From: Escherichia phage ECO103 4-12-1
Length of the DNA stretch: 64,000 nucleotides
Sequence record: OR844650
Direction: 5' to 3' (one strand)
Shown: one piece after another, positions 59,174 through 61,601 of the stretch
Layout of the letters: every line of letters begins with the position of its first letter
Numbering within the stretch: the stretch's first letter is position 1
Notes under the pieces: generated by a model
What the model saw: only the letters and a program-made list of their open reading frames with translations
What the model was told of the DNA's origin: nothing
Database searches by the model: none
Program-made: the position numbers and the translations under genes

Positions 59174-59205
59174 GGAGAGCATAATGCTCTCCTTTTCTTT
59201 TTTTA
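59174..59205. terminator. bidirectional terminator (GGAGAGCA-UAA-UGCUCUCC) shared by the giant ORF and the clpA-like gene
   Basis: A-run upstream, T-run downstream; near-identical to the element at 12607. Confidence 0.75.
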
Positions 59206-61491
59206 TACTAGTGCTTTATCTACAGCTTTGGTACGTTTCGGCTTAATACCGATTTTACCATCAATAACATCAAATGTAATGTTACCACCATTCACAAGTG
59301 AACCACACAACATTTCTTTAGCTAGTGGTACACGAATGTTTTGTTCAATGGTACGTTTCATTGGACGTGCACCCATACCAACTTTTACCCCATTTTTCGC
59401 AAGCCATTCACGTGCAGCTTTTGTCAATGTAACTTTAACATTACGGTCTTTGACTTGTTCATTCAAACCACCCATGAACTTATCAATGATGCTGTCAATA
59501 GCTTCACTGCTTAGGTCTTTAAACGTAACGATACTATCAATACGGTTAATAAACTCTGGTGGCAAGAATGCTTTAATTGCCTTGTCCTGTGCAGTGTCAC
59601 TACCGCTCATACCAATGCTACGCTTTGTTGAATCAGCCGCACCAAGGTTTGTAGTCATAATAACAGTTACGTTATTAAAATATACAGTTTTACCTTGAGA
59701 ACCAGTCAGACGACCTTCATCCAAAACCTGTAGGAAGGTTAGTAGTACTTTACGATCTGCTTTTTCAATTTCATCAAGTAACAGTACTGCATTAGGGAAC
59801 TGCTCAATTTTATCCAACAGTAAACCGTTACCAGAATCATGACCAACATAACCTGGAGGTGAACCAATTAGTTTAGAAACAGTATGTTCTTGAGAAAATT
59901 CTGACATATCAAAGCGAATGAGTTCCGCACCAGTTGCGTCTGCTAATGCTTTGGTAATTTCTGTTTTACCAGTACCAGATGGTCCAACAAACATAAATGC
60001 ACCCTGAACACTAGATTTGTCACGCAGTCCTGCACGAGCTACCATCACGTTATCAACTAATTTTTGAATAGCTTCCTCTTGACCGTATACACGTGAGCGT
60101 AGTGCATCTGGTAGATTACGCATACGATCACTTTCAGTACATGCAACCACGTTGATATCCAAATTGGCAATACCAGCAACAACTTCTTGAATCAAATTGG
60201 CAGTAATTAGCTTACTATTGTTGTCACGTGAACGAACTTTAGCCGCAGCAGCATCCATTAGATCAATTGCTTTATCTGGGAAGTGCTTATTCTTCAGGAA
60301 TTTATCACTGAGAGAAATTACAGCATCCATTGCATCAGATGTGAACTCAACATTATGGAATTTTTCATACGTTGGTTTCAAACCATTAACAATTGCACGA
60401 GTTTCATCAATTGTCGGCTCAACTACGTCAATTTTCATAAAACGACGAGTTAATGCACTATCTTTCTCGATATTTTTACGATATTCATCATATGTTGTTG
60501 CACCAATTACACGAATCTCACCACGTGAAAGTGCTGGCTTAAGCATATTGCTCATGTCCATAGAACCATTACTTGCGGAACCAGCCCCAACCATAATATG
60601 AATTTCATCAATGAAAACAATAGTATTTTCACGTTTCTTTAGTTCTTTTAGCAAATTGTCGATGCGTTCTTCAAATTCACCACGATACTTAGTACCAGCA
60701 GTCAATGCACCAACATTTAGTGAAAGAATTTCAACGTCTTTCAGGTGTTCAGGTACGTTACCATCAGCAATAGCTTGTGCAAGCCCGTCGATGATTTGTG
60801 TTTTACCTACACCAGCTTCACCAGTGAGAATAGCATTCTTTTTGGTTTTGCGAGCAAGAGTCTCAATCAATGCAGACAATTCTTTCTGGCGACCAATCAT
60901 AGGATCTAGTTTGCCTTCTTTTGCAAGAGCAGTTAGATTCGTTGTATAGTCTTCCAAACCTTTTTGTTTAGATGATTGCTGCTGTTGGGCCACTTTTTTA
61001 TCTCCAATCGGTTCGTCATTAATACTTTGTAAGTTGATACCCTTATCAAGTGACTCAACGTGTTTCTGTAATGCACGTGCAGCTTCAGTACAGCTAACAC
61101 CTTCTTCTTTTAACGCAGCTTCTAGTGCTGTGTTAGGGAAAGACAGACATTCGAATAGAACAAAATATGCATCAATCGAAAAATCATCACTTTTTAGTTG
61201 TTCAATAACTGATTTTTTAGAAAGCTCATGTACAACGCGATTCACTAGAAGTGAAGTTCGATTCGCGTCTTCATCTTTAACACTTTTTGGTGCATGTGGA
61301 ACTGTTGTATTTTTAAGATAGTTCATTAGGCGGTTGTGCAGTTTGTCTGCATCAATGTTCATATCTTCAAATACGTTCTTGATGCTATCAATAGTCAGTA
61401 CTGTGGCACTTACGTGGTCAATAGTCAAGAATGTATGACCTAGAGATGTTGCCAGTTCGTCGCTTTTTTTGAACAATTGAGTAAGATTCAT
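59203..61491 (-). CDS. clpA: ClpA-type AAA+ unfoldase (Clp protease ATP-binding subunit homologue)
   Basis: N-domain; two AAA+ modules (Walker A GEAGVGKT and GPSGTGKT; Walker B FIDEIH and LLLDEIEKA); IGM tripeptide at the ClpP-docking loop position; start ATG 61491 with AGGAGA SD (track start 61512 is GTG). Confidence 0.9.
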
Positions 61492-61531
61492 GTATTCTCC
61501 TATGTGATTCACGTCACTCTAATTAATAAAC

Positions 61532-61561
61532 ATTATATCACATTCTTACGGTTTGTCTACA
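61532..61561 (-). promoter_or_regulatory. sigma70-like early promoter (TAGACA, 16-nt spacer, extended -10 TGATATAAT)
   Basis: plus-strand ATTATATCA at 61532-61540; about 40 nt upstream of the clpA-like ATG. Confidence 0.45.
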
Positions 61562-61601
61562 AGGTAAATAAAGATATACCCGATTTATTTTGGAGACAAT
61601 C

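Follow-up and report, generated by a model that had tools for sequence, protein, structure and literature searches.

The stretch of DNA analyzed here, referred to as the window, comprises 64,000 nucleotides of Escherichia phage ECO103 4-12-1 (sequence record OR844650) and encodes, on its minus strand, a 762-residue ClpA-like protein. It is probable, at about 0.6 as judged from sequence comparisons, that this clpA gene specifies the ATPase/unfoldase of a phage-encoded ClpS/ClpA/ClpP protease. The three components are each identifiable and intact, they are conserved together throughout the clade of related phages, and clpA and clpP are preceded by the same type of promoter. From these observations we infer a physical pairing of ClpA with ClpP and with ClpS, as well as the timing of expression and the nature of the substrates. 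In the original prediction, the protein was regarded as an unfoldase that may redirect the ClpP of the host; the premise of an orphan dependent on host ClpP arose because only 64 kb was in view. This premise is not supported, because the complete genome of phage 121Q, which has an identical ClpA protein and from whose annotation the partner genes have been read, encodes a ClpP with an intact catalytic triad (gp464) and a ClpS-domain protein (gp48), both co-conserved with ClpA. Both genes lie outside the window, at opposite sides of it: clpP is found ~81 kb past one end, so not near clpA, and the gene of gp48 ~23 kb past the other end. A phage clpP in the vicinity had been named beforehand as the finding that would turn clpA into part of an ordinary Clp system; such a gene exists on the scale of the genome, though at a distance. 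Within the window, tblastn searches with the ClpP and ClpS sequences of E. coli and with those of the phage itself gave nothing, as had been predicted.

The protein is a ClpA-type double-ring unfoldase, which is not of the ClpB, ClpV or ClpC type and in which the docking loop is retained. Pfam profiles match as AAA (residues 221-341), AAA_lid_9, AAA_2 (497-654) and ClpB_D2-small (660-739), and Clp_N matches the N-terminal 160 residues with 24.8 bits (gathering cut-off 20.7), for its first repeat only. The best NCBIfam model is that of ClpA (TIGR02639; 754.7 bits, residues 3-740), with lower scores for ClpB (634) and ClpV (548). In the PDB sequence search, E. coli ClpA comes first (604 bits) and aligns as a single uninterrupted stretch over residues 17-741, whereas ClpB and ClpC align as two stretches, split at their M-domain. 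The pairwise alignment with E. coli ClpA has an overall sequence identity of 44%, being 28% for the N-domain, 51% for D1 and 46% for D2, and it shows neither a large gap nor an insertion of the size of an M-domain, the lengths being 762 and 758 residues, respectively. All catalytic motifs of D1 and D2 are intact, including the Walker A and B motifs, the pore-1 loops, the Arg fingers and sensor-2. The complete ClpA architecture that had been proposed from the open reading frame is therefore confirmed by Pfam, NCBIfam, the PDB search and the pairwise alignment. The phage protein shares with E. coli ClpA (1KSF, 1R6B; ClpAP complexes 6W1Z and 7UIV) the arrangement of N-domain, D1 and D2, the absence of an M-domain, the position of the docking loop and all ATPase, pore-loop, Arg-finger and sensor motifs. 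The phage protein differs from E. coli ClpA by an insertion of ~14 residues in the N-domain, by a docking loop that is 3-5 residues shorter and has IGM instead of IGL at its tip, and by lacking a Met where the E. coli protein has its internal start, M169.

These comparisons agree with the predicted structure. A single-sequence AlphaFold model had a predicted local distance difference test score (pLDDT) of 37 and was unusable; the alignment-based AlphaFold (AF2) model (pLDDT 79) was used instead. This model consists of 8 helices in residues 3-148, a disordered linker and two AAA+ modules, and its loop 624-630 is disordered. Its AAA+ body superposes on the ClpA protomers of the cryo-electron microscopy structures of ClpAP with a template modeling (TM) score of 0.88 and a root mean square deviation of 3.7-3.9 Å.

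The window is 99.7-99.9% identical at the nucleotide level to the Escherichia phages PBECO4, 121Q, phAPEC6 and slurp01, and it corresponds, after reverse-complementation, to the 121Q coordinates 295,748-348,532 plus 1-11,117. Its source is an Asteriusvirus jumbo coliphage of the 121Q/PBECO4 type, which belongs to the Rak2-like group and has a genome of ~348 kb, and not a T-even phage. The earlier designation as a T4-like phage is correct with respect to the core genes, since homologues of gp6, gp25, gp15, gp20-23, gp43 and gp55 are present, but not with respect to the genome, and the contrast that had been drawn with the T-even phages is inapplicable to a Rak2-like jumbo phage, where ClpA belongs to the core genes of the whole clade. 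The protein has 100% identity with gp581 of 121Q and is also found in slurp01, SHEFM2K and E9.1; it is annotated as 'ClpA-like' or 'ATP-dependent protease', and the gene is called clpA in slurp01, SP27 and Sharanji. In 121Q, PBECO4, slurp01, phAPEC6 and SP27, the gene, its neighbors, its promoter and its terminator are the same, without any difference. The match with phrog_4871 ('ATP-dependent protease') has a score of 1035 bits, with residues 2-756 aligned to profile positions 11-761 of 764. The gene is thus already known: dozens of GenBank records carry its annotation, a PHROG exists for it and it figures in two comparative papers, and ClpA has been described in the literature as conserved among Rak2-like phages. 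In the searchable literature, annotation-level remarks on phage ClpA were found, and no functional, structural, expression or proteomic study of it.

The clpP gene of 121Q (gp464, 231 residues; locus L009:18364-19059) looks like that of a genuine, catalytically intact ClpP of the cellular type. The Pfam family CLP_protease matches gp464 with 141 bits, covering profile positions 2-179 of 182, and the cellular ClpP models score 152-155 bits as compared with 51 bits for the model of the ClpP-related head-maturation protease, although the scores are under the NCBIfam equivalog cut-offs for ClpP (152 vs 309 bits). Solved ClpP structures are matched with an E-value of 1e-36 in the PDB search. The sequence identity with E. 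coli ClpP is 37%, and the Ser-His-Asp triad is present in canonical motifs. In a comparison of eight phage ClpPs, the residues S111, H136 and D185, as well as the axial-loop residues P18, V20, E22, E28, R29, D32, S35 and R36, are invariant. The Rak2-like ClpPs (gp464 and its homologues, L012-L017) also have a conserved C-terminal extension of ~22 residues (G.RNEKG.Y.VKRR.G...WV), which neither E. coli ClpP nor the ClpP of PA5oct-type phages has. Tailed phages also have prohead proteases with the ClpP fold; gp464 differs from these in fitting the cellular ClpP models three times better and in keeping the axial-loop residues for communication with the ATPase, and the 121Q genome holds a separate prohead protease of the T4 gp21 type (gp601; L011:13748-14371), adjoining the portal, scaffold and capsid genes.

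Two further peptidase-like genes lie near clpP. The product of one of these, gp473 (L009:22420-23028), has a highly diverged ClpP fold, with an N-terminus resembling a signal peptide, 21% identity to ClpP and a score below the Pfam cut-off, and it is unlikely to be the partner of ClpA. The product of the other, gp475 (L009:23356-23952), resembles the HslV family (phrog_1040, 85 bits); the annotation of 121Q does not name an HslU-like partner. The 'ATPase' gp563, considered as a ClpX-like alternative partner, has no similarity to ClpX, nor to any protein in the NCBIfam and PDB searches.

For the third component, gp48 (181 residues), the match of the single sequence is marginal (Pfam ClpS, 24.7 bits with a cut-off of 23; PDB search, E-value of 0.17). 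The profile of the 15-member gp48 family matches only ClpS chains in the PDB, with a best E-value of 4.3e-8, and Pfam ClpS is matched by all 15 members. The protein has conserved N- and C-terminal extensions, and the residue equivalent to E79, a ClpA-contacting residue of ClpS, is invariant in the family. The gene of gp48 directly follows that of an IF3-like translation initiation factor and precedes a KTSC-domain gene (gp47-gp49; L005:33944-35623). Upstream of the IF3-like gene, there is a σ70 consensus promoter (12/12 positions); this promoter, together with the adjoining position of gp48, suggests that the two genes may be co-transcribed.

The co-occurrence of these components has been examined by tblastn searches against 50,697 phage records. 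At 60% identity or more, ClpA is found in 69 records (Escherichia 31, Klebsiella 11, Salmonella 10, Erwinia 8; Xanthomonas XaC1 has 53.5%) and ClpP of the gp464 type in 68 records (Escherichia 32, Klebsiella 10, Salmonella 8, Erwinia 8). The ClpS-like protein occurs in 70 records, all of them Rak2-like (Escherichia 32, Klebsiella 10, Salmonella 8, Erwinia 8, Yersinia 4, and 2 each for Serratia, Cronobacter, Pectobacterium and Xanthomonas). ClpA, ClpP and the ClpS-like protein are therefore conserved together in one set of ~70 Rak2-like records, with closely matching genus distributions. More distant jumbo phages that carry ClpA, among them the Pseudomonas PA5oct group, Salicola SCTP-2 and an uncultured 635-kb phage (LR745206), also have ClpP. 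Agrobacterium phage Atu_ph07 encodes ClpA, ClpP and ClpS (PMC6102473). The ClpA proteins of Atu_ph07, the PA5oct group and SCTP-2 share no more than 38-43% identity with that of the window; in the PA5oct type, the canonical tripeptide IGF is present. The roles in these phages are the same and are likewise proposals. ClpA, ClpX, ClpP and ClpS have also been noted in jumbo phages by Iyer et al. (PMC7824862).

The genes clpA and clpP are each monocistronic, each with its own terminator, and their promoters are nearly the same, being TAGACA-16-gTGaTATAAT for clpA and TGGACA-16-gTGaTATAAT for clpP. The pattern GACA-N13-TGnTATAAT occurs four times in the window, where 0.03 occurrences are expected, and the complete genome of 121Q has 19 copies (loci L005-L011). 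The other copies in the window precede the SSB gene and the gene of a gp55-like late sigma factor (PHROG-confirmed); by their position in the 121Q annotation, genome copies are found 5' of the genes of a primase, an exonuclease, tRNAs, a nudix hydrolase, the ATPase gp563 and ClpP. These sites may constitute one pre-late class or regulon, recognized by the σ70 of the host. Because its promoter class is also that of replication genes and of the gene of the late sigma factor, clpA would be a pre-late gene, placed on the opposite strand inside the late structural block. Literature searches gave no transcriptome of phages from this group.

The tip of the predicted ClpP-docking loop has been compared in 114 clusters of the phage clade (54-93% identity, mostly from contigs of ~350 kb). 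The ATPase motifs are almost invariant (GARPM in 114/114 and LLLDEIEKA in 112/114), and the docking loop is kept in every member, with conserved flanks. The tripeptide at its tip occurs in 25 variants, with IGM and MGM in 16 clusters each, IGV in 11, LGM and IGA in 9 each, LGL and MSM in 8 each, VGF in 6, IGG and MNM in 5 each, and rarer forms including TAI. Its positions 1 and 3 rank 38th and 23rd in variability among the 297 sites of D2. The consensus [LIV]-G-[FL], with respect to which the third residue of IGM is non-canonical, is strongly conserved in cellular Clp ATPases, and the ClpP of the host is nearly invariant, with highly conserved docking pockets. For this reason, the variation of the tripeptide argues against selection for docking on the host ClpP. 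It fits either an interface specific to the phages, in which both sides drift together, or a docking that has become weaker in some of its members. When the tripeptide is compared with the ClpP pocket residues in eight phages, both differ between lineages; a co-evolution of the two is not claimed here, as this sample is small and confounded by phylogeny. The hypervariability of the docking tripeptide seems not to have been described before. The Salmonella phage PHA46 has an intact clpA homologue with the tripeptide MNM (PP191103.1, 207551-209821; locus L021), which is without an annotated feature in the GenBank record. A stop codon inside this homologue was ruled out, since the tblastn alignment had run beyond the natural stop.

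Several observations weigh against a phage-encoded ClpS/ClpA/ClpP protease. The genes clpA, clpP and clpS-like are dispersed and do not form an operon. The tripeptide is poorly conserved, with MNM, MSM, IGG and IGA among its forms, so that docking on ClpP may be weakened or lost in some members of the clade. The pocket residues of ClpP that correspond to those binding IGL in E. coli are changed to Y60T, F82S and L114G in gp464, and over the eight phages to T, V or S at Y60, to S, Y, N or C at F82 and to G at L114. In gp48, the canonical N-degron pocket is missing, as N34D, D36P and H66N are replaced and D35 and T38 are kept, according to a low-identity alignment; because of these replacements, gp48 could tentatively be seen as a ClpS-fold adaptor with a different specificity. 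ClpA does not reach the NCBIfam equivalog cut-offs (TIGR02639, 754.7 vs 993 bits; NF008263, 654.6 vs 1350 bits). In view of its sequence, the accurate label would be 'ClpA-type' or 'ClpA-like', given that the architecture is that of ClpA and the score is under the equivalog threshold. Furthermore, gp464 carries the PHROG/RefSeq label 'head maturation protease', which is probably a mis-assignment, because the capsid-protease role is already filled by gp601, and one ClpP peptide has been detected in virions of phage CBB (PMC5259590).

The coordinates of the clpA gene and of its signals are listed in Table 1. The reading frame extends up to position 61512 (59203..61512, minus strand), where an upstream GTG would give a protein of 769 residues; the ATG at 61491 is taken as the real start, because the AGGAG sequence precedes it and because the resulting length of 762 residues agrees with that of the annotated 121Q coding sequence. 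A σ70-like promoter with an extended -10 element and a strong Shine-Dalgarno sequence, both part of the original prediction, have been located 5' of this ATG. The proposed terminator, shared with the convergent giant tail gene, has also been found, as a hairpin between the stop of the 3333-residue gene (59166) and that of clpA (59203).

Table 1. Features of the clpA locus and promoter-pattern sites, in window positions
Feature	Position	Strand	Remarks
clpA-like coding sequence, 762 aa	59203..61491	minus	stop codon included; open reading frame call, Pfam, NCBIfam, PHROG, PDB search
N-domain, aa 1-150	61042..61491	minus	Clp_N-type double four-helix repeat; most diverged part, 28% identity to ClpA-N
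D1 AAA+ module, aa 186-448	60148..60936	minus	Walker A GEAGVGKT, Walker B FIDEIH, pore loop KYRG, Arg pair LTRRF
D2 AAA+ module and small domain, aa 449-745	59257..60147	minus	Pfam, alignment
IGM tripeptide, aa 626-628	59608..59616	minus	tip of predicted ClpP-docking loop; column-for-column with E. coli ClpA IGL 617-619
Shine-Dalgarno sequence AGGAG	61497-61501	minus	5-nt spacer to ATG
σ70-type promoter TAGACA-16-(TG)TATAAT	61559..61532	minus	extended -10 TG
Bidirectional intrinsic terminator	59170-59196		perfect 12-bp stem, A-run 5' and T-run 3'
GACA-N13-TGnTATAAT sites	5827-5852, 5903-5928, 38559-38584, 61532-61557	minus	pattern search
3333-aa open reading frame (121Q gp582)	49165-59166	plus	'virion structural protein'; convergent with clpA

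The clpA gene is embedded in a baseplate/tail structural module, on the strand opposite to the structural genes, and has no virion-protein flag in the 121Q annotation. Its flanks are covered in 44 of 48 related records, in which the gene context is kept. The clpA gene has a G+C content of 0.385, compared with 0.345 in the window. The gp582 reading frame lies directly 3' of the gp6-like baseplate wedge gene. Between the gp25-like and the gp6-like baseplate genes, there is an HNH endonuclease gene (121Q gp584; L001:5886-6650, window ~44.9-45.7 kb), whose record carries the remark 'associated with group I intron'. Outside the window, ~14 tandem paralogues resembling RCC1 ('regulator of chromosome condensation'; 121Q gp234-gp248, L007:19089-33255) form an array on the strand opposite to its neighbors.

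It is extremely improbable that the protein is a disaggregase of the ClpB, ClpV or ClpC type mislabeled as ClpA, or that the gene belongs to host or contaminant DNA joined by assembly chimerism. The missed equivalog threshold would fit a mislabeled disaggregase, as would the motif PEF[IL]NRID, which is present in D2 and is also typical of ClpB and ClpC, and the Foldseek comparison, where full-length ClpC models come first by E-value. However, sequence identity in that comparison is highest to ClpA (47% vs 42-44%), and the best NCBIfam and PDB matches, the single-stretch alignment, the ClpA-like length without an M-domain insertion and the docking loop all agree with ClpA, such that these other identities are ruled out. 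The concern about chimerism is likewise removed by the identical gene context in 44+ complete phage genomes and by the phage-like G+C content. A further alternative is that the phage ClpA docks on the ClpP of its E. coli host, alone or besides the phage ClpP, and redirects proteolysis to phage-chosen substrates. This is decidedly unlikely. When infection begins, the ClpP of the host is abundant, IGM is a near-canonical tripeptide that aligns exactly with the E. coli IGL, and the D2 body is similar to that of E. coli ClpA; but the phage has its own intact ClpP, which is co-conserved with ClpA and has the same promoter type, and jumbo phages with ClpA that do not belong to the clade likewise encode a ClpP. 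Moreover, the tripeptide varies among phages of Enterobacterales (IGM, IGV, LGL, MNM, MSM and IGG, for example), whereas the host pockets are conserved.

A role of the phage protein as a protease-independent unfoldase, remodeling chaperone or translocase, for example in the assembly of the adjacent very large virion proteins, has also been considered; such a role is unlikely, although ClpA of E. coli can remodel RepA without ClpP. The position of clpA within the baseplate/tail module, beside the 3333-residue virion gene and with this context widely kept, would suit it, but the gene is on the strand opposite to the structural genes, has a pre-late rather than a late promoter and is without a virion-protein flag, and adjacency is the only argument for a chaperone of the nearby giant protein. 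A relaxed tripeptide in part of the clade would fit a lost dependence on ClpP, but the docking loop with its conserved flanks is present in every member, and ClpP and the ClpS-like protein are strictly co-conserved. The genome has other chaperone-like genes, encoding GroES-like proteins (gp615, strong; gp58, weak) and a KTSC protein, as well as a weak, sub-threshold match resembling a DnaJ zinc finger, and translocase or assembly roles have been suggested generically by Iyer et al. (PMC7824862).

In the preferred reading, that of a phage-encoded ClpS/ClpA/ClpP protease, the hexameric double ring of ClpA (gp581) would unfold substrates by means of the pore loops of D1 and D2 and translocate them into the tetradecamer of the phage ClpP (gp464), on which it would be docked through the IGM loops. 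The ClpS-domain protein gp48 would bind to the N-domain of ClpA and bias the choice of substrates. Transcription of clpA and clpP from the same strong extended -10 promoter of the σ70 type would take place before that of the late structural genes, alongside the replication genes and the late sigma factor. Possible substrates are host proteins, degraded for takeover or recycling, early proteins of the phage and misfolded products of its proteome of ~600 genes.

It is also possible, as a tentative extension of this reading, that the Rak2-like phages have an orthogonal, self-contained ClpS-ClpA-ClpP machine, in which the interface has drifted such that it is insulated from the ClpP, ClpA and ClpX of the host, and in which the adaptor directs the degradation of proteins chosen by the phage. 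The shortened docking loop with its hypervariable tripeptide, the altered ClpP pocket and the 22-residue C-terminal extension of ClpP are consistent with such a drifted interface. In that case, a ClpS-fold adaptor whose degron pocket is non-canonical would guide the machine to host proteins (including those of defense or housekeeping) or to phage early proteins, which would be degraded before late expression.

A clade of ~350-kb phages keeps its own ClpS, ClpA and ClpP under strong purifying selection, despite infecting hosts that have a good ClpAPS system. The functional role of this Clp set, which is apparently expressed before the late genes, is the point of interest beyond the assignment of the gene. 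If the phage machine is insulated from that of the host, it would be a virus-encoded, substrate-programmable protease with a natural orthogonal AAA+ docking interface, and this would, if true, be relevant to the takeover of the host by the phage, to phage engineering and to antibiotics that target Clp.

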